Virus record (IMG/VR): IMGVR_UViG_2671180458_000011
Source of the DNA: a virus
Lineage: Duplodnaviria; Heunggongvirae; Uroviricota; Caudoviricetes
Strand: one strand, 5' to 3'
Length of the DNA stretch: 23,839 bases
The notes beneath the pieces were generated by a model. The model saw only the letters and a program-made list of their open reading frames with translations, searched no databases and was not told the origin of the DNA. Position 1 is the first letter of the stretch. Each line of letters begins with the position of its first letter. Position numbers and translations under genes: made by a program. Shown in pieces: positions 9,372 through 19,194 of the stretch.

Positions 9372-9922
9372 CCCTGACCCCGCATCAGCGTGCCCTGTTG
9401 CAGTTGCTGCCTGACGGGCTGGCATGGGATAAGCGGCCGTCATCCGTTCTTGCGGCTTTGTGCCTGGGCCTCAGTCATTCCACGGAGCGTGTTTCCTGGA
9501 CCGGTAACCAGATGCTGGCAGAACGTTTTCCTGATTCATCCCGTCTGCTGCTGGAAGACTGGGAGCGTTATCTGGGGTTACCGGAATGTGATATGACCGG
9601 CGCAACCATTCAGGAGCGTCAGCGTTATGCCGGGAATAAATACCGGATGAAACCCTCTCTTAACCGTGAATTTTATATCCGGTTTGCGGCAGAGTTTGGT
9701 TATGAAATAGATATTCAGCCATCACCGGATTCACAGTGGGTCAGTATTGTCACGATTAACAGTGAAACCGGCTACCGGAATATGAATGTGCTGGATGATA
9801 TTCTCACCCCGCTGCGTATTTATGAGGGTGGTGCGCTGGAATGTATTCTGAACCGTTATAAGCCTGCATGGCAGACGTTTATTTACGTGTATGCAAACAG
9901 CCATGAAGAGGAGACTATTTAA
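9362..9922 (+). CDS. tail protein gp48-like (DUF2313/YmfQ-like)
   Basis: 186-aa ORF directly upstream of the tail fiber gene; its stop overlaps the tail fiber ATG (TAATG at 9920-9924). Confidence 0.7.
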   Translation: MAVTLTPHQRALLQLLPDGLAWDKRPSSVLAALCLGLSHSTERVSWTGNQMLAERFPDSSRLLLEDWERYLGLPECDMTGATIQERQRYAGNKYRMKPSLNREFYIRFAAEFGYEIDIQPSPDSQWVSIVTINSETGYRNMNVLDDILTPLRIYEGGALECILNRYKPAWQTFIYVYANSHEEETI

Positions 9923-10833
9923 TGTTTCATGTTGATAATAATTCCGGCGTGGCGAATATGCCTGCGCTGGCACCGGCGCAGAGTAATACCACCACCTGGT
10001 TTACCGAAGGTGACGGACAAAAAGGTATCAGCTGGATTGGTCAGGACTGGCTGAATATTCTCCAGGCCGAACTGCTGAATATTCTGGCTGAAGCCAGTAT
10101 TCAGCCGGATAAGGCGCAGTTAAACCAGCTTACGCTGTCCATTAAAGCCATTATCGCTGCGAATGCCTTTTCCCGGAAAAACAACCTGAAAGAAATTGCT
10201 GATGCCGGTGCGGAAGCCCAGCGTCTTGCCCGTAGTTATCTTGGTCTTGGGGCGCTTGCCACAAAAAACAGTCTTGGTCCCGGTGACGTTAATGCTCTGG
10301 CGAAGGATCAGAACCTTGCCGACCTGGAGAATGCGGGAACCGCCCGTAATAATCTGGATGTTTACAGCAAAAGCGAAGGTGATAACCGTTACCTGCGCAG
10401 GGAGCAGAACGGCGCAGACATTCCGGATAAAGGCGCTTTTATCGATAACGTCGGTTTACGGGAAACGGTAAATAAGGCTGCTGATGCCCTGCCATCGGGT
10501 GGAACCGCCGTGGCAGCAAACAGACTCGCCACCCCAAGAAATATTAATGGCGTTCCTTTTGACGGAACGCAGGATATCAACATCACGTCAGGAATGACGC
10601 AGTCAACCGCAGATGGCCGGTATGTACAGAATGTTCAGCTTGGAGCACAGAGCTATCATTCACCCGGAGGCAATGAAATATCATGGAATTACAGCGCACC
10701 TTCCGGTTGTATGCTTTCCGGTATTAACGTGCAGGAAACCGGCTCCCGGTCTGCGGACAATATCGGTGGGGTCTATTATCGCCCGGTTCAGATTTATATT
10801 AATAATGCCTGGAGAACGGTAAGTTCAGTGTAA
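9922..10833 (+). CDS. tail fiber protein: constant part (9922 to about 10451) fused to the currently in-frame variable part Sv (about 10465-10833)
   Basis: 303-aa ORF; a gix-like crossover site lies inside it at 10439-10464; its C-terminal tail resembles that of the inverted cassette on the opposite strand. Confidence 0.8.
   Translation: MFHVDNNSGVANMPALAPAQSNTTTWFTEGDGQKGISWIGQDWLNILQAELLNILAEASIQPDKAQLNQLTLSIKAIIAANAFSRKNNLKEIADAGAEAQRLARSYLGLGALATKNSLGPGDVNALAKDQNLADLENAGTARNNLDVYSKSEGDNRYLRREQNGADIPDKGAFIDNVGLRETVNKAADALPSGGTAVAANRLATPRNINGVPFDGTQDINITSGMTQSTADGRYVQNVQLGAQSYHSPGGNEISWNYSAPSGCMLSGINVQETGSRSADNIGGVYYRPVQIYINNAWRTVSSV
10439..10464 (+). other. gix-like recombination site, left (inside tail fiber gene)
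   Basis: TTATCGATAACGTCGGTTTACGGGAA: 26-bp site with two imperfectly symmetric 12-bp halves around a 2-bp core, closely resembling the Mu gix / Hin hix architecture. Confidence 0.7.
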
Positions 10834-10867: not shown

Positions 10868-11440
10868 TTATTCCGGTTTTTCCGGCCAGGGAATCGCCTG
10901 GTAATGCCCCTCACTGGCAATATCATTAAAGTGCATTTCTTTAAGCTGTCGGATATACGCCATCCAGCGCGTCAGCTGTAATTTATTTTCATCGCTAATC
11001 ATGTCCAGTTTTAATTCTGTTTTCCAGTCATCCACGGTTTCGTTGGCTTCCTGGAGCAGCGATGAGCGACGCTTTTCAGCAACCGTCTTCCAGTTTACCG
11101 GCACCTTTGATATCAGGCCATCAGAAAACTGCCAGTTACCGTCAATATTCACACCTTCCGGCAGTTCGTCCACTTCAACAACAGTAAAACCTGCCGGATA
11201 TAAAGCAGAGACATCTTCAGCAACAGAGCAGATAATACCCGTTACAGGCGAAATACAGAGTTTGTATTTCTTTGTGAAAAGCGGGATAGATTCATAAAAA
11301 TCCCTTCCGTCCTCACTCTGGAAATACTGAACATCCTCACCATAGGGTTTGTCTTTCGGGTAATATCGTTTGACATTAATCAGTTGCATAAACATCACCA
11401 TGTAAATCAATGATAAAAACAGGAATAATACTATCGCCAT
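10868..11440 (-). CDS. tail fiber assembly protein (Tfa/U'-like), paired with the inverted Sv' cassette
   Basis: C-terminus ends in the Tfa-type motif (IPWPEKPE). The first 17 codons are strongly hydrophobic, so the real start may be the internal ATG at 11389. Confidence 0.65.
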   Translation of the reverse strand: MAIVLFLFLSLIYMVMFMQLINVKRYYPKDKPYGEDVQYFQSEDGRDFYESIPLFTKKYKLCISPVTGIICSVAEDVSALYPAGFTVVEVDELPEGVNIDGNWQFSDGLISKVPVNWKTVAEKRRSSLLQEANETVDDWKTELKLDMISDENKLQLTRWMAYIRQLKEMHFNDIASEGHYQAIPWPEKPE

Positions 11441-11510: not shown

Positions 11511-11877
11511 TTAAATACTTGCAGCGGATACCCAATGCCCATTAATACAATATTGTATCTGTCTGTAATAAACACGGTCATCACCACCACGCATTTCCCA
11601 GTCTCCGTTAGTCTTAAAACCGGTAATCACATTTCCTGATGACAGGGAGTAATTATATTCCAGTCCGCCGCTTAATGCCTGCGCTCCCAGTCTTACCCCT
11701 GTAACATAACGCTGATTGGCCGTTGATTCCGGCATTCCTGACGTAATGTTTATATCCTGCGTGCCGTCAAAGGCGACACCATTGATTCTGCGGGCATTTG
11801 CCAGCCTGCTTGCTGCAACAGCCGTACCGTTTGATGGCAGGGCATTCGCGGCCCTGTTTACAGTATCCCGTAAACCG
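11511..11877 (-). CDS. alternative tail fiber C-terminal cassette (Sv'), promoterless in the current orientation
   Basis: Minus-strand frame open from the right gix-like site to the stop at 11511; C-terminus resembles that of the + strand fiber. Confidence 0.6.
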
Positions 11878-11890
11878 AGGTTTCAGGGAT
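11865..11890 (-). other. gix-like recombination site, right (inverted relative to left site)
   Basis: ATCCCGTAAACCGAGGTTTCAGGGAT; the 12-mer CCCGTAAACCGA is the exact reverse complement of TCGGTTTACGGG in the left site; sits just upstream of gin as in Mu. Confidence 0.7.
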
Positions 11891-11944: not shown

Positions 11945-12505
11945 ATGCTGATTGGCTATATACGCGTATCAACAAATGACCAGAACACAGGTTTACAAAG
12001 AAATGCGCTGGAATGTGCAGGATGTGAGCAGATTTTTGAAGACAAAATGAGTGGTAAAACGACACAGCGGCCGGGACTGAAGCGGGCACTGAAGAAACTA
12101 AAACCCGGTGACACGCTGATGGTCTGGAAACTGGACAGGCTGGGGCGCAGTATGCGCCACCTTGTTGCGCTGACAGATGAATTACAGCAACAGGGGATAA
12201 ATTTTCGTAGTCTTACTGACAACATTGATACGTCAACCCCCATGGGGCGCTTCTTTTTTCACATAATGGGTGCGCTGGCAGAAATGGAGCGTGAATTAAT
12301 TGTCGAACGGACACGGGCTGGTCTTGCAGCTGCCCGTGAAAGGGGACGAACCGGCGGCAGACCCCGCCGTCTCACGCAGGAACAATACGAGCAGGTCGGG
12401 CGTTTACTGGCCGGGGGTGTCAGTCGAAGACAGGTGGCACTTATTTTTGATATCGGTCTTTCAACCCTTTATCGTTATTATCCTGCGAGCGTTTCGGAAA
12501 AATAA
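11945..12505 (+). CDS. gin: serine DNA invertase (Gin/Pin/Hin family)
   Basis: 186-aa protein beginning MLIGYIRVSTNDQNTGLQRNALECAGCEQIFEDK, near-identical in pattern to Mu Gin including the catalytic-serine N-terminal domain and C-terminal HTH; AAGGAAGG Shine-Dalgarno upstream. Confidence 0.9.
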   Translation: MLIGYIRVSTNDQNTGLQRNALECAGCEQIFEDKMSGKTTQRPGLKRALKKLKPGDTLMVWKLDRLGRSMRHLVALTDELQQQGINFRSLTDNIDTSTPMGRFFFHIMGALAEMERELIVERTRAGLAAARERGRTGGRPRRLTQEQYEQVGRLLAGGVSRRQVALIFDIGLSTLYRYYPASVSEK

Positions 12506-12604: not shown

Positions 12605-14644
12605 ATGACGTCCAAATGGGTTCAACTATCATCAATGCCCGGAAACTTTACTGTTAAAGTTTCCGGTGGTACAGCGGCATTTCTTGAGGCTCCCTTTCCT
12701 CCGGCCGAAACAAAAGGAGGAATGACATTTGCTGACTGTCTCATCAGTTTTAATACACGGGATTGCCTGTGGGTAAGGCCAGTATCCGGTGATCCGAGTG
12801 TGGAAATTACCGGAGCGGGTATTGGTGCGGTCATTCCGTTAAGTGCTGATGTTGCCGGTACTGCTGAACCGTCAGACTGGGATAATGCTGAAACACATAC
12901 CCGTCCGTCAGGAAATGAAACTGCTTCCAGCTCCCCTTCCTGGTATTACGTGGTGGTTCTTGCTGGTCAGTCAAACGGTATGGCTTACGGTGAAGGTCTG
13001 CCACTGCCGGAGACATATGACCGCCCCGAACCGCGTATTATGCAGTTAGCCCGTCGCAGTACAGTCACGCCGGGAGGTAAAGCCTGTCAGTATAACGACA
13101 TCATTCTGGCCGACCACTGTCTGCATGATGTGCAGGATATGAGTGGAAAAAATCACCCGAAAGCGGATGTGGCTAAAGGGCAATATGGCACCGTGGGTCA
13201 GGGGCTTCACATTGCCAAAAAACTGCTGCCGTTTATTCCGGCAGATGCGGGGATTCTGCTGGTTCCCTGCTGCCGTGGTGGTTCTGCATTCACGGCGGGT
13301 GCTGACGGCACGTACAGTGACAGCACGGGTGCTTCAGAGGACTCAGCCCGCTGGGGTGTGGATAAGCCGCTGTATAAGGACTTAATCAGCCGGACAAAAG
13401 CGGCACTGGCGAAGAACCCGAAAAACCGCCTGCTTGCTGTGGTGTGGATGCAGGGCGAGTTTGATATTGATGCGAAGCCGACGGAGCATTCTGCGCTGTT
13501 TCTGGCGATGGTGGAAAAATTCCGCGCAGACCTGGCTGAACAGGCGGAACAGTGTACCGGTGGCAGTGCTGCTGGCGTTCCGTGGATTTGTGGTGATACC
13601 ACGTATTTCTGGAAACAGAAAAACGAACAGGCATACCAGGCAATCTATGACGGCTACAAAAATAAAACAGATAAAAACATTCATTTCGTCCCATTAATGA
13701 CAGATGAAAATGGCGCGAATGTACCCACCAACAATCCGGCAGAAGACCCGGATATTGAATCCATTGGTTATTACGGCTCAACGTGGCGTAACAGTGCCGC
13801 CACCTGGACATCTGCGGACCGGGCCAGCCATTTCAGTTCATGGGCACGTCGTGGGATTATTTCCGACCGTCTGGCCACGGCAGTTCTGACTCATGCGGGG
13901 CGAACCACAGTAAAAGCCGATGTTCCATCTTCTGAAACTGAAGCACCAGTGCCGTCACCTTCAGAAACTGAAGCAGTAACCACAACACTGCTGTCTTACC
14001 GTGTCAGTGAGTCAGAAGGAAATCTGAAAGCCCAGGGCTGGGAGCCGGCTGGCGGTAAAGCTGAAATTATCAGTGATGCAGGAGGCACAGGTGGTAAGGC
14101 AATGAAACTGACCAAGGAAACAGGTAAATCATCCTGGTATCTGGATCATGATGCCGGTACTGGTGCTGAACTGCTGAAAAATGGTGGTTTAATCAGTTGT
14201 CGTTTTAAAGTACCGGGCGACCTGGTGGCAAACCAGTATGTCATGGCGCTTTACTGGCCGGTTTCCTCTCTGCCGCAGGGTGTCACCCTGACAGGGGATG
14301 CAGGGAATAATCTGCTGGCATCGTTCTACATCCAGACAGACGCAAAAGACCTGAATGTGATGTACCACAATGCAAAAGTGGCAACAAATAACCAGAAACT
14401 GGGAACCTTTGGTGCATTTGATAATGAATGGCATACGCTGGCCTTCCGTTTTGCAGGAAATAACAGCCTTCAGGTTATTCCGGTTATTGATGGTCAGGAT
14501 GGTGCCGCGTTTACCCTGACGCAGTCACCAGTAGGAACTTTCCCGGTGGACAAACTCCGCGTAACGGATATCACAAAAAATGCAACTTACCCGGTGCTGA
14601 TTGACAGCATTGTGGTGGAAGTGAAAAAAGCGGTAACAGAATAA
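12605..14644 (+). CDS. SGNH/SASA-type esterase with C-terminal lectin-like domain (NanS-p-like sialate O-acetylesterase candidate)
   Basis: 679 aa; GQSNG block at about residue 120, WMQGEFD block and a D-x-x-x-H block consistent with SASA/DUF303 esterases; Pro/Ser/Thr/Glu-rich linker then about 230-aa beta-rich domain. Family call from motif recognition only. Confidence 0.5.
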   Translation: MTSKWVQLSSMPGNFTVKVSGGTAAFLEAPFPPAETKGGMTFADCLISFNTRDCLWVRPVSGDPSVEITGAGIGAVIPLSADVAGTAEPSDWDNAETHTRPSGNETASSSPSWYYVVVLAGQSNGMAYGEGLPLPETYDRPEPRIMQLARRSTVTPGGKACQYNDIILADHCLHDVQDMSGKNHPKADVAKGQYGTVGQGLHIAKKLLPFIPADAGILLVPCCRGGSAFTAGADGTYSDSTGASEDSARWGVDKPLYKDLISRTKAALAKNPKNRLLAVVWMQGEFDIDAKPTEHSALFLAMVEKFRADLAEQAEQCTGGSAAGVPWICGDTTYFWKQKNEQAYQAIYDGYKNKTDKNIHFVPLMTDENGANVPTNNPAEDPDIESIGYYGSTWRNSAATWTSADRASHFSSWARRGIISDRLATAVLTHAGRTTVKADVPSSETEAPVPSPSETEAVTTTLLSYRVSESEGNLKAQGWEPAGGKAEIISDAGGTGGKAMKLTKETGKSSWYLDHDAGTGAELLKNGGLISCRFKVPGDLVANQYVMALYWPVSSLPQGVTLTGDAGNNLLASFYIQTDAKDLNVMYHNAKVATNNQKLGTFGAFDNEWHTLAFRFAGNNSLQVIPVIDGQDGAAFTLTQSPVGTFPVDKLRVTDITKNATYPVLIDSIVVEVKKAVTE

Positions 14645-14790: not shown

Positions 14791-14973
14791 ATGACATTCG
14801 TTCATACAATGCTGCTTTATTTCTGCGCAGTGGTCAGTGCGTTATATCTGGTGAGCGGCGGTTATAAGGTCATCAGAAATTATATTCGCCGTAAAATTGA
14901 TGATGCGGCAGCTGAAAAACTCAGTAAAACAGCACAGGCACCGTCATCCCCAAACGACCCGACCCCGCTCTGA
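14791..14973 (+). CDS. small predicted membrane protein (60 aa), unknown function
   Basis: Single N-terminal hydrophobic helix then charged tail; AAAGGTAAGG Shine-Dalgarno-like sequence upstream; AT-rich foreign-looking DNA. Confidence 0.4.
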   Translation: MTFVHTMLLYFCAVVSALYLVSGGYKVIRNYIRRKIDDAAAEKLSKTAQAPSSPNDPTPL

Positions 14974-15283: not shown

Positions 15284-15292
15284 GTGAATTTG

Positions 15293-15463
15293 TTAATGCA
15301 CGTTTTGTGTACTTTCCCTCCGGGGAGAACAGGCAGGACATATCAGCATCCTGAAACAGGACGCATTTTGGGGTTTGTATGTCTTGCCATTTTGAGATCG
15401 AGAACGGCGATAGATGAGCTGTAAGGGAGTCTTACAGGCAGGGCAAACAGGCTCTTTATCCAT
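15293..15463 (-). CDS. small zinc-ribbon protein (56 aa, two CPAC motifs), unknown function
   Basis: Minus-strand ATG at 15463 preceded by AGGAGA with 8-nt spacing; Cys-Pro-Ala-Cys at residues 7-10 and 41-44. The ORF track's longer version (to 15487) starts upstream of the Shine-Dalgarno sequence. Confidence 0.4.
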   Translation of the reverse strand: MDKEPVCPACKTPLQLIYRRSRSQNGKTYKPQNASCFRMLICPACSPRRESTQNVH

Positions 15464-15565
15464 GATAAAGATCTCCTTTTTATGCATCTCTGCTTTACAG
15501 GAGACCGGGGAATATCATAGGATACGCCACGAGCTCGAAGTAAAGCATTGATGCGAATTTGTTCC

Positions 15566-15595
15566 AGGTCCAGATAGCTGTAACTATCTGGACCT
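15566..15595. promoter_or_regulatory. perfect 12-bp inverted repeat with 6-bp spacer (candidate operator or hairpin)
   Basis: AGGTCCAGATAG ctgtaa CTATCTGGACCT in the divergent intergenic region between the zinc-ribbon gene and com. Confidence 0.4.
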
Positions 15596-15643
15596 CCCTT
15601 TATGTAGTATCCTGTTGATTTGAAACATACTACATATACGCGC

Positions 15644-15821
15644 GATCCTACCTTCACTGTATAAAAAGTCAATAAAATGATCATTTTATGATCGTTTTCA
15701 CCACCTAAGTCTTCGTTTTCTTTAAGTAAATAATCACCGCCCTGAATCATTGTTGATGACTTTTCAATCTATTTGTTGTATCAATTAAACAAATCGAATC
15801 GATCGTTTTTGTCGATCGATT
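15644..15821 (+). promoter_or_regulatory. GATC-dense mom-operon control region (candidate Dam-methylation-sensitive promoter region)
   Basis: Five GATC sites in about 175 bp (15644, 15679, 15690, 15801, 15814), including a 9-bp inverted repeat AATCGATCG n7 CGATCGATT at 15797-15821 just upstream of com. Confidence 0.45.
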
Positions 15822-15864: not shown

Positions 15865-16065
15865 ATGTATCGAAACATACGGTGCCGACACTGCAATAAG
15901 CTACTGGCACGGGCCAGTTTCAGTTATCTGGAAGTAAAATGTCCGCGCTGTAAAACCCTCAATCAAATCACATCTCCGAGCGCCACAGAGCACCCCACAT
16001 ACACAAGGAAATCCTGTCGTGGGGAACAGAAAGCAAGCCACATCCCGTATCATCAGCACGCCTGA
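15865..16065 (+). CDS. com: Com-like zinc-finger translational activator of mom
   Basis: [14 protein letters not shown]...VKCPRCKTL...EHPT matches the Mu Com four-cysteine pattern; AGGAGG Shine-Dalgarno 10 nt upstream of ATG 15865 (ORF track starts at TTG 15820); 3' end overlaps the next gene as in Mu. Confidence 0.7.
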
Positions 16066-16756
16066 ACTTATTCGCTATAACGACAATATCGTTGGTTATG
16101 GCTCCCGTGAGTTGCGGGTTGAGACAATAAGTTGCTGGCTGGCCAGACTGGTCATCGTCAATAAACATTACAGCCACCGTTTCGTAAATAACTCCTACCT
16201 TCATCTGGGCATATTTTCAGAACGGGAGCTGGTTGGCGTAATGCAATGGGGCTATGCCCTTAATCCAAACAGTGGTGCACGCGTCGTAACGGGCACGCGG
16301 AACCGTGAATATATGGAGCTTAACCGGTTATGGCTGCATGACTGTATGCCGAGAAACTCCGAATCAAGGGCAATCAGTTACGCGCTCAAGCTAATCAGGC
16401 AGCTTTATCCGCAGGTACAGTGGGTTCAGTCGTTTGCAGATGAGCGTTGTGGCTGTCTTGGTGTCGTGTATCAGGCAAGCAATTTTGATTATGTAGGCAG
16501 CCACGAATCAACATTCTATGAACTTGATGGCGAGTGGTATCACGAGATTTGCAGGAATGCCATTAAACGAGGCGGACAGCGAGGTGAACATCTGAGGGCT
16601 AATATCGACAGAGCCAGTGTTCATAAATTCCGTCAGTTTCGTTACATCCGGTTTCTGAACAAGAGGGCCAGAAAACGCCTCAACACAAAGCTATTCAAAG
16701 TCCAGCCTTACCCAAAACCACAAACAGTTAAAACTGGTTTAAAAGAGAGTGAGTGA
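16019..16756 (+). CDS. mom: Mom-like DNA modification protein
   Basis: 245-aa ORF (GTG start) beginning inside the 3' end of com, the characteristic com-mom overlap; last gene before the prophage right end as in Mu. Called from context, not from remembered sequence. Confidence 0.6.
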
Positions 16757-18044
16757 ACGCTTAAAAACTCATTCTAAAACCCAAAAGAAAAGCGCCGATT
16801 TAGTATCAAATAAGTTGCGTATCGGCGTTTTTCAGCGGTATCAAATGAAATGCAAATCGGTATCAAAAAAATCGCCGCGCTATAATAAGCAGCTCAGAGC
16901 TGCCAATAAAGTCACTAACGTGCTGGATACAGAACTCACATCAGCCCGTGCCGCGGAACGTAAGGCCCAGCAAACTGCACAACAAGGTATGAAGGAAGAA
17001 GAGCGAGAGTTGTGCGCGTCACATTTTCCAGTGGTGACTTTGGAGCAATTGCCTGACATTCGCGATTTAGAACGTCAACATGAGCGGGGAATTCAGCATG
17101 AAATTGAAAGAGTTAAAGCTGAACTACATCGACTGAACATTGAGTTGACCAAACGTATGTCTGAAGCCAAACGTGTGGATACCGGGGCGCTCGTTGAGGC
17201 AGGGGCTGATTTGGACGATATTACTGTTTATTTACAGCGTTTGCAGGAACTGACCGAAGAAGCCCTGCCGGAAAAGCTCAATCGCTTCCTTGATTATCTT
17301 AACCGTTCATCCGATGACGGCGTAACACAACTGCTTAGCCATATTGAGCATGAGGTGCTGGTGATTGAGGAGCGCCTCAATGAACTCAATGAAACTATGT
17401 TCAGGGTTGATTTTCAGCCGTATCGCTACCTGCGTCTGGATACCAAAAAAGTTGTCCATGAAAGCCTGCGCACGCTTGAAAAAGCACAGCGTCAGCTAAA
17501 TGCCGCCCGATTTGTTGATGATAATGGCGAGAGCTATTATAAGGCTTTGCAGATACTGGTGGCGCAATTGCGGGATGCTTGTGAACGAAACCGTACCCTG
17601 GGAGCAAAAGCGCTACTGGATCCCCGTTTTCGACTGGAGTTCGCCGTATCGGTGATGGATCGTCAGAGCGGAAATGTGATTGAGTCTCGTACCGGCTCAC
17701 AGGGTGGTAGCGGTGGAGAAAAAGAGATTATCGCTTCTTACGTGTTAACAGCTTCACTTAGCTACGCACTTTGTCCTGCGGGGAGCCGTTATCCGCTTTT
17801 CGGTACCATTATCCTTGATGAAGCCTTCTCCCGCAGTTCTCATGCGGTGGCGGGTAGGATCATTGCCGCGCTTAGAGAATTTGGCTTACATGCAGTATTT
17901 ATCACCCCCAATAAGGAAATGCGCCTGCTGCGTGACCATACTCGTTCGGCGATTGTTGTCCACCGGCGCGGTCAGAATTCCAATATGGCTTCTCTGAGCT
18001 GGGAAGAGCTTGAACGACACTACCAGCGACGGGGGAACGCGTAG
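16749..18044 (+). pseudogene. jetC 3' fragment: C-terminal half of a Wadjet SMC-like ATPase, truncated by the prophage
   Basis: Contains signature-like GSGGEKE, Walker B IILDEAF and an H-loop His but no Walker A; the first 48 codons or so (16749-16896) are a Lys-rich read-through of phage-end sequence; coiled-coil-like sequence begins about 16897. Confidence 0.6.
16800..16896 (+). repeat. prophage right-end repeat array (candidate transposase-binding sites) ending in CA
   Basis: Three direct copies of GTATCAAA at 16803, 16838 and 16860 plus ATCGGCG/ATCGCCG motifs; GCGTTTTTC at 16825-16833 resembles part of the Mu R-end; terminal CA at 16895-16896. Confidence 0.4.
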
Positions 18045-18045
18045 G

Positions 18046-19194
18046 ATGTATTCCCCAGATGAATTGCGTGAAAAGCTTGCCCGGCAGTGGGATAGCGCAA
18101 AACTTCGGGCTGAACGCTTACTGTCCCCCGGTAACTGGCCGCTCTGCCTGCCTATTGGTAAACCTTCCACGAAAATATTTGCAGAGCAGACTCAGCGCGT
18201 TTTGCAGCACGTACAGCGATGGAGGCAAGTTGCGGTTGGGCACGTGGAATGGGAAGCGGTGAGTTATCGGGCAAGTGATACACCAGTATTAATGCCGTTG
18301 CGCTGGATTCTGAATAGCCCTTCTGAGTGGATCAACGCCGCTGCGGATCCGGTTGTGAGCCGGGAATTTCGCTTGCTGGAAGGAATTATTGAACAAGTTA
18401 ATCCCATTTTTCACCCGCTGTTGGTAAAGCATCGCTCTCTCTGGCGGCACAAAGATCCGCAGGGCGTCATCAGCGCCGCCACGCTGGCCTGCCGATTAGA
18501 GCCGGGCTGCGCAAAAGGGCTGCCGTTAAGATTGCTTTCCGGGCAAGGAGTGGATACCAAATTTATCGAGAATAATATTTCGTTATTAACCCGACTGTTA
18601 GACGTGCGGTTTTCAGGAGAAGCCAGCGAGCAGGGATTAACAACTTTTCTTGATGCTTTTGATGAGTCCAGTCACTGGGTTTTAGTTGTACCATTATCAC
18701 CCGGCTTACTTCCTTTTAAAAAATGCCGGGTAACAACGGCGGAACTGGCAGAAACAACATTACCTGCGTCGCAAGTACTGGTGGTTGAAAATGAGCAGTG
18801 TCTGCATCATCTTCCAGCATTATCTGACACTATCGCGATTTTAGGCTGTGGCCTGGACGTGCAATGGCTATCCAGTTCTGTTCTGGATGAAAAACGCGTT
18901 GCTTATTGGGGGGACATGGATAGCTGGGGATTACTGATGCTGGCGAGAGCCAGGCGCTGTCGTCCGACGCTTGATGCCCTGCTCATGAACCGTGAGTTGT
19001 TTGAGCAGTATGCCAGTCATAGCGCCGTTCCAGAACCGGTCATAGCGAAGGAAGCTGTACCTGATGGCTTGCTTAACGAAGAGGCCGATTTTTATCGCTA
19101 CTTAACCCGTTTACCGTGTGGTCGTCTGGAGCAGGAGTTTTTGCCAGTGGGGATTGCGGAAGAGGTGCTTCTCAGGTGGGGAAAAGAGAGTTAA
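18046..19194 (+). CDS. JetD-like Toprim-domain protein (Wadjet subunit D)
   Basis: ATG at 18046 two nt after the jetC stop (ORF track starts at TTG 18010); about 382 aa with VVENE and YWGDMD motifs typical of the DUF2220 Toprim-like domain. Confidence 0.65.
   Translation: MYSPDELREKLARQWDSAKLRAERLLSPGNWPLCLPIGKPSTKIFAEQTQRVLQHVQRWRQVAVGHVEWEAVSYRASDTPVLMPLRWILNSPSEWINAAADPVVSREFRLLEGIIEQVNPIFHPLLVKHRSLWRHKDPQGVISAATLACRLEPGCAKGLPLRLLSGQGVDTKFIENNISLLTRLLDVRFSGEASEQGLTTFLDAFDESSHWVLVVPLSPGLLPFKKCRVTTAELAETTLPASQVLVVENEQCLHHLPALSDTIAILGCGLDVQWLSSSVLDEKRVAYWGDMDSWGLLMLARARRCRPTLDALLMNRELFEQYASHSAVPEPVIAKEAVPDGLLNEEADFYRYLTRLPCGRLEQEFLPVGIAEEVLLRWGKES

Follow-up and report, generated by a model that had tools for sequence, protein, structure and literature searches.

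A probable NanS-p-type sialate O-acetylesterase with a differing N-terminal domain in a Mu-like prophage of Escherichia coli

A gene at positions 12605-14644 of a 23,839-nucleotide (nt) stretch of tailed-phage DNA (IMG/VR record IMGVR_UViG_2671180458_000011; Caudoviricetes), here called the window, very probably encodes a prophage sialate O-acetylesterase of the NanS-p type that is housed in a Mu-like prophage and carries a differing N-terminal domain (probability about 0.88). NanS-p esterases let E. coli strains that produce Shiga toxin (STEC) use O-acetylated mucin sialic acids, and several copies are present per strain. With 98% identity, the window region matches the right arm of Sp18, the Mu-like prophage carried by E. 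coli O157:H7 Sakai, and it contains gin, com and mom, in agreement with the Mu-like context proposed by an initial annotation made from the sequence alone. The open reading frame (ORF), which is present exactly as that annotation gave it and encodes 679 amino acids (aa), has as counterparts ECs_4993 of Sakai Sp18, annotated 'hypothetical protein', and WP_073547372.1 in strain FHI_NMBU_11. Family, activity and C-terminal domain are largely known already, and databases already name the protein: many of its 1556 homologues are called "sialate O-acetylesterase" or "DUF6645 domain-containing protein". As far as we searched, what is undescribed is the replacement of DUF1737, the N-terminal domain of NanS-p from Shiga toxin (Stx) phages, by a cupin-like domain; a literature search returned no publication linking NanS-p with a Mu-like phage and none naming ECs4993. 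The protein is divided as follows (pLDDT, predicted local distance difference test score).

12605-14644, plus strand: complete, intact ORF of the probable Mu-type NanS-p sialate O-acetylesterase, ATG start, 679 aa
12605-12838, plus strand: N-terminal domain, aa 1-78, predicted small all-beta cupin-like barrel
12839-12940, plus strand: linker 1, aa 79-112, predicted disordered (pLDDT 40-46)
12941-13900, plus strand: SASA/SGNH esterase domain, aa 113-432, delimited by the 3PT5 alignment, the Pfam SASA match and block positions
13901-13978, plus strand: linker 2, aa 433-458, Pro/Ser/Thr/Glu-rich (…KADVPSSETEAPVPSPSETEAVTT), read from the sequence
13979-14641, plus strand: C-terminal lectin-like jelly-roll domain (DUF6645), aa 459-679, about 220 aa, delimited by 6YP6 and PF20350

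Assignment to the SASA/SGNH family, as initially proposed, was upheld by a Pfam search, in which aa 116-312 matched PF03629 (SASA) with 46.2 bits (E=5.5e-12) against a curated cut-off of 24.8 bits. Furthermore, aa 104-428 align nearly gap-free and with about 67% identity (E=1.4e-118) to the crystal structure 3PT5 of E. coli NanS (YjhS), a 9-O-acetyl-N-acetylneuraminate esterase, and a match to PHROG 143 spans aa 62-677. The three motifs on which the family had been proposed (GQSNG, WMQGEFD and D-x-x-x-H) were all located. GQSNG occupies aa 121-125, with the nucleophile candidate Ser123 at nt 12971-12973; WMQGEFD, the QGE block, occupies aa 281-287; and D405-R-A-S-H409 is found inside DRASHFS, with SHFS at aa 408-411 and His409 at nt 13829-13831. 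The oxyanion block, RGGSAF, occupies aa 224-229. Together these blocks align with GQSNA17-21, RGGSAF120-125, MQGEFD178-183 and SHFS~303 of 3PT5 (block list: PMC10792757). Because the protein also matches Pfam SASA, DUF6645, 3PT5 and 6YP6, the motif matches are not due to chance.

The Ser-His-Asp triad that formed part of the initial proposal should not be expected. E. coli NanS is without the block V Asp, the role of the acid being taken by a main-chain oxygen (PMC9487903, PMC10792757), and Asp405 sits four residues ahead of His409, unlike the canonical D-x-x-H spacing. Thus, by analogy with NanS, the expected machinery is a Ser123-His409 pair with a backbone-oxygen acid rather than a classical triad. 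A full-length AlphaFold2 (AF2) model built without an alignment had a pLDDT of 33, too poor to read Ser/His geometry, and we infer the juxtaposition of the two residues in three dimensions only from the gap-poor 67% alignment to 3PT5. Ratios of nonsynonymous to synonymous substitution (dN/dS) against a diverged allele were 0.12-0.13 in the SASA domain and 0.25 in the C-terminal domain, indicative of purifying selection. The protein is, on this evidence, a functional-looking member of the NanS-p group.

The Pro/Ser/Thr/Glu linker and beta-rich C-terminal domain noticed initially are real (aa 433-458, then aa 459-679), and database searches now give the latter an identity. Residues 459-674 align to 6YP6, the crystallised C-terminal domain of a NanS-p, with 78-85% identity (E=2.9e-112), and aa 524-642 match PF20350 (DUF6645; E=4e-70). 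The aromatic residues Y510, Y515, Y540 and F611 of the phi24B C-terminal domain, proposed to bind sugar (PMC10462455), have conserved counterparts in Y545, Y550, Y575 and F646. With both domains matching solved structures and a body 77-81% identical to Stx-phage NanS-p, the suggestion of a NanS-p-like candidate was correct.

The N-terminal 110 aa or so had been left unassigned, and no Pfam match was obtained there; this part is now seen as a real, independent domain unrelated to DUF1737. Pfam found no DUF1737 (PF08410) in the Mu-type protein, whereas lambdoid relatives do carry PF08410, and hhalign gave a probability of 1% for the pair, that is, no relationship. With an 11-sequence alignment, AF2 confidently predicted a small all-beta domain (block-mean pLDDT 75-90, aa 1-70) that resembles a minimal cupin-like barrel. 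Histidine is absent from aa 1-80, so the domain is not a metal-dependent cupin enzyme. Foldseek of this model against the PDB found nothing significant. The best fold matches in BFVD were numerous phage proteins, uncharacterised and 77-100 aa long (E ~0.01-0.1; target-normalised TM score 0.55-0.65), and two members of the N-domain family matched (E=0.006 and 7.7e-6) the 79-aa, functionally uncharacterised family phrog_4772. Unlike the N-domain, these are stand-alone proteins, and their marginal relation to it is uninformative on role.

Relatives of the N-domain are few. A word-indexed search recovered near-identical fragments only, phmmer run exhaustively against 1.84 billion representatives gave 5 matches, and a profile search gave 8. 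Besides near-identical E. coli fragments, these relatives comprise an E. coli / Shigella sonnei type with about 60% identity and a Salmonella enterica type with 29%. A 1445-aa repeat protein (P0005) was discarded as a relative, as its phmmer match looks compositional. When phage genomes were searched by tblastn, the N-domain was found in Mu-like inserts only, aside from a match in Synechococcus phage S-T4 that falls outside annotated genes and was rejected as spurious. The Salmonella N-domain, used as query, had no match in viral contigs.

Wherever its genomic setting was inspected, the domain was in one kind of phage. Upstream genes were inspected at five loci, namely the window, L006 from Salmonella, and three loci of the second E. 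coli type (L022, L031 and L032). All are Mu-like, with the esterase gene downstream of gin and a Mu-type baseplate and tail-fibre module also upstream of it; gin thus marks an insertion site for the esterase module that is conserved among Mu-like prophages. A 96%-identical copy in two GenBank Stx-phage records lies inside a Mu-like phage inserted there. The second Mu-type allele (E. coli / Shigella sonnei, 681-691 aa; e.g. P0092, L022 8001-10052) has the same architecture and post-gin position, with a longer linker 2 and an N-domain about 60% identical to that of the window, whereas its esterase body is only 74-76% identical. The Salmonella enterica homologue (P0008, L006) also follows gin. 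Identities at this locus were 29% for the N-domain, 24-38% for tail and baseplate proteins, 67% for gin and 67% for the first 33 esterase residues; divergence of the N-domain is thus comparable to that of the tail and baseplate proteins and far greater than that of gin or the esterase start. The Salmonella locus also contains two small ORFs between gin and the esterase gene (L006 9426-9910) that are missing from the E. coli versions: one of 58 aa (phrog_6330, with weak 'hemolysin' PHROG matches) and one of 87 aa (phrog_20491, with weak transcription-regulator matches).

The rest of the protein has a different history. The esterase and C-terminal body nests among lambdoid bodies of the DUF1737 type, with up to 86% identity. 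Between the two Mu types, synonymous sites are saturated in the N-domain, and synonymous divergence (dS) of the body is 0.84-1.6. Since the body is nearer to lambdoid alleles than to the other Mu-type allele, recombination at the linker is indicated. Collectively, the identity patterns of body and N-domain suggest that the N-terminal module goes with the type of phage, and that the linker is where the enzyme cassette is exchanged by recombination between types. One further sequence, P0075 (643 aa; L030 1-2539, GCA_012426925.1 contig AASMET010000054.1), joins DUF1737 to a Mu-type body 96.5% identical to that of the window allele; its locus has a lambdoid N-terminus and upstream tRNA region, then the Mu right end, with the switch at about nt 854. 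Either lambdoid and Mu-like sequences have truly recombined in it, or assembly has fused paralogous nanS-p copies into a chimera; as its junction lies 607 bp from a contig end, P0075 was excluded as proof of a recent N-domain swap.

Characterised homologues (PMC8065619, PMC8319020) provide the basis for a proposed mechanism. Ser123 would attack the ester bond of the 9-O-acetyl (also 7/8-O-acetyl) group, in sialic acids of mucin glycans or in free 5-N-acetyl-9-O-acetylneuraminic acid (Neu5,9Ac2), with His409 as the base and an oxyanion hole formed by the GQSN, RGGSAF and QGE blocks, while the C-terminal lectin-like domain would keep the enzyme on the glycan. No signal peptide was found in the 679-aa protein, so the enzyme would leave the cell, and reach its substrate, upon phage lysis. 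Once de-O-acetylated, the sialic acid would be open to sialidases and to the Nan pathway of E. coli. NanS-p of EDL933 and O104:H4 have esterase activity and support growth of lysogens on Neu5,9Ac2 (PMC8065619), and we infer activity of the Mu-type protein on Neu5,9Ac2 and mucin sialic acids by analogy.

What the N-domain adds to such an enzyme may be gauged from phi24B gp84. The DUF1737 domain of this protein has been reported to form hexamers on capsid hexons, and gp84 is reportedly self-processed at SSP-containing linkers (bioRxiv 10.64898/2026.04.10.717836). Where gp84 has its DUF1737 capsid anchor, the Mu-type protein has an unrelated N-domain at the same position, followed by a linker 1 that is rich in Ser/Thr/Pro/Asp and ends ...TASSSPS and includes an SSP motif (aa 109-111). 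From DUF1737 capsid binding, the equal position and the SSP linker, we tentatively favour virion attachment or oligomerisation in a Mu-type particle as the likeliest function of the N-domain, though at well below even odds. The narrower proposal that it is a new virion-attachment module of Mu-like myoviruses, equivalent but unrelated to DUF1737, is somewhat doubtful. If it were true, the surface of Sp18-type particles would bear a sialate O-acetylesterase and lectin directed at mucin, and swapping of the N-terminal anchor would move one mucus-targeting enzyme cassette between unrelated phage morphotypes. Such a swap makes a testable prediction, that the esterase may be present on virions of two unrelated phage types via different anchors. 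Should the anchor reading fail, the gene would simply add another functional nanS-p allele to any assessment of STEC sialic-acid use.

Several observations weigh against this reading of the gene and its N-domain. Although Sp18 is a predicted intact prophage whose DNA is packaged efficiently, mitomycin does not induce it (PMC2669165), and lysis may therefore seldom release the enzyme. A promoter/terminator scan found no promoter above shuffled expectation between gin and the esterase ORF, and no N-domain paralogue was found elsewhere in Sp18. The N-domain family consists of three sequence clusters only, a narrow basis for the AF2 model as well as for the argument from co-occurrence, and the Salmonella copy ends at a contig edge, leaving only 33 SASA residues for comparison.

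The main rival to the anchor reading, to which we give only slightly less than even odds, holds that the enzyme is soluble lysogenic-conversion 'moron' cargo, produced for example by gin read-through and released by occasional lysis, with an N-domain that has nothing to do with the virion and instead dimerises, solubilises or binds sugar. The benefit would be that lysogens gain O-acetylated sialic acids, as the growth on Neu5,9Ac2 conferred by NanS-p of EDL933 and O104:H4 illustrates (PMC8065619), and the gene indeed occupies a typical accessory slot between gin and com/mom, away from the structural operons. Left unexplained by cargo of this kind is why exchange of the N-module should go by phage type when recombination of the enzyme body is free, and the equivalent position in phi24B gp84 is reported to be capsid-binding (bioRxiv 10.64898/2026.04.10.717836).

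It is improbable that the protein is instead a virion-borne, receptor-modifying esterase that acts on acetylated O-antigen, capsule or enterobacterial common antigen and eases access to a lipopolysaccharide-core receptor, in the manner of the tailspike SGNH esterases of other phages. Such a role has been raised for NanS-p generally (PMC8065619), and both the proximity of the gene to the tail-fibre inversion segment and a weak match of aa 210-311 to the PHROG 'tail protein' family phrog_25867 (E=4.4e-5) are compatible with it. That match, however, spans only part of the SASA fold and was the only tail or baseplate adaptor match in Pfam and PHROG; there is neither a trimeric beta-helix or fibre-like region nor homology to baseplate-attachment domains. 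With domains about 80% identical to those of Stx-phage NanS-p reported active on Neu5,9Ac2 and mucin sialic acid esters, and with the sugar-site aromatics conserved, the O-antigen deacetylase or depolymerase offered as an alternative by the initial annotation gains no specific support. Less probable still is that the gene is what remains, decaying or without function, of a lambdoid nanS-p that entered a Mu-like prophage by recombination. Mosaicism of the esterase body and the frameshift of the neighbouring reverse-strand gene in the window speak for this, but the 679-aa ORF is intact with all catalytic blocks conserved, dN/dS is low (0.12-0.25), and intact full-length homologues exist in two diverged alleles. 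Furthermore, the ORF is covered over at least 80% of its length in 167 of 5426 complete E. coli genomes, with at least 99% identity in 153 of these; the strains listed with a covered ORF are chiefly O157:H7 and other STEC.

The reading frame itself was scrutinised for an alternative start. M1 is favoured, as residues 5' of M11 are conserved in diverged homologues. An internal ATG at 12722 (M40) was rejected: the strong AAGGAGG ahead of it is spaced by only 1 nt (12714-12724 with the ATG), and the residues upstream are conserved in diverged homologues. Along the window, genes for tail sheath, tube, tape measure and baseplate are followed by a tail-fibre gene, gin and the esterase gene, after which come DUF1378, DUF826, a reverse-strand ORF, and com and mom (to 16756), the prophage ending at about 16888. 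The immediate neighbours of the esterase gene are as follows.

11945-12505, plus strand: Gin-type DNA invertase, directly 5' of the esterase gene
14791-14973, plus strand: DUF1378 small gene, 60 aa, 53% identity to the gene after Stx-phage nanS-p
15009-15254, plus strand: DUF826 small gene, 81 aa, 45-47% identity to the gene after Stx-phage nanS-p

Upstream of gin is an invertible tail-fibre segment bounded by inverted arms of 179 nt that are 74% complementary (10447-10625 and 11704-11882). The left arm is crossed by the tail-fibre ORF at 9922-10833, and the segment contains a reverse-strand tail-fibre assembly gene (10868-11440) and a short alternative fibre C-terminus (11511-11735). At the right end, the anti-restriction module differs among otherwise near-identical prophages. 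The window (15865-16756) and Sakai have com and mom, whose ORFs overlap at 16019-16065, while a DNA cytosine methyltransferase (PF00145) follows com in FHI_NMBU_11 (L003 16626-17678) and in a second Mu-type locus (L031 11792-12844). The reverse-strand gene at 15288-15752 is a homologue of ECs_4996 (154 aa and hypothetical in Sakai) that is split in the window into ORFs at 15343-15750 (135 aa) and 15293-15487 (64 aa). It is also flagged as frameshifted by the Prokaryotic Genome Annotation Pipeline (PGAP) in the near-identical FHI_NMBU_11, and it had no match in Pfam or NCBIfam. Past the prophage end, 16889-19194 continues in frame with about 385 C-terminal aa of a protein resembling JetC (a match to SbcC/RAD50 Walker B), followed by an intact JetD (DUF3322 and JetD_C; 18010-19194). 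The prophage therefore appears to have inserted into, and disrupted, jetC of a Wadjet anti-plasmid system; in other strains the same prophage is located in sorM or ttdB.

Comparison with the two known systems, NanS-p of Stx phages and chromosomal NanS of E. coli, sets the Mu-type protein apart at its N-terminus and in its location. Stx-phage NanS-p is a protein of about 645 aa with the architecture DUF1737-SASA-C-terminal domain; the Mu-type protein is without DUF1737 (aa 3-53) and has a longer linker. Their esterase domains are 78-81% and their C-terminal domains 78-85% identical, all SGNH blocks and sugar-site aromatics are conserved between them, and neither has a signal peptide. Homology to two Stx phages at the DNA level is limited to 12943-14633 (77-81% identity), which takes in the esterase domain from its first residue and ends shortly ahead of the stop codon. 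The host elements also differ, a lambdoid phage for canonical nanS-p and a Mu-like transposable myovirus for the Mu-type gene. Canonical copies sit in the lambdoid late region, between stx (or Q) and the holin/lysis genes (PMC10462455), whereas the Mu-type gene sits between gin and com/mom. The initial annotation had thus erred in regarding a position beside tail-fibre genes as typical of NanS-p; only the Mu-type version abuts a tail-fibre inversion segment. Downstream, the resemblance resumes, as the order nanS-p, DUF1378, DUF826 is common to Stx phages (PMC10462455) and the window. The product of the DUF1378 gene looks like a small membrane protein. Homology of both small genes to those of Stx phages is seen at the protein level only, with no match at the DNA level. 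Because the same two small genes follow the esterase in both phage types, the unit common to lambdoid and Mu-like phages is a three-gene module.

Chromosomal NanS (YjhS, 3PT5) has the same catalytic fold and the blocks GQSN, RGGSAF, MQGEFD and SHFS, with Leu four residues ahead of the catalytic His where the Mu-type protein has Asp405. NanS itself is periplasmic, belongs to the nan regulon, carries a signal peptide and consists of one domain. By comparison, the Mu-type protein is prophage-borne and possesses additional N- and C-terminal domains.

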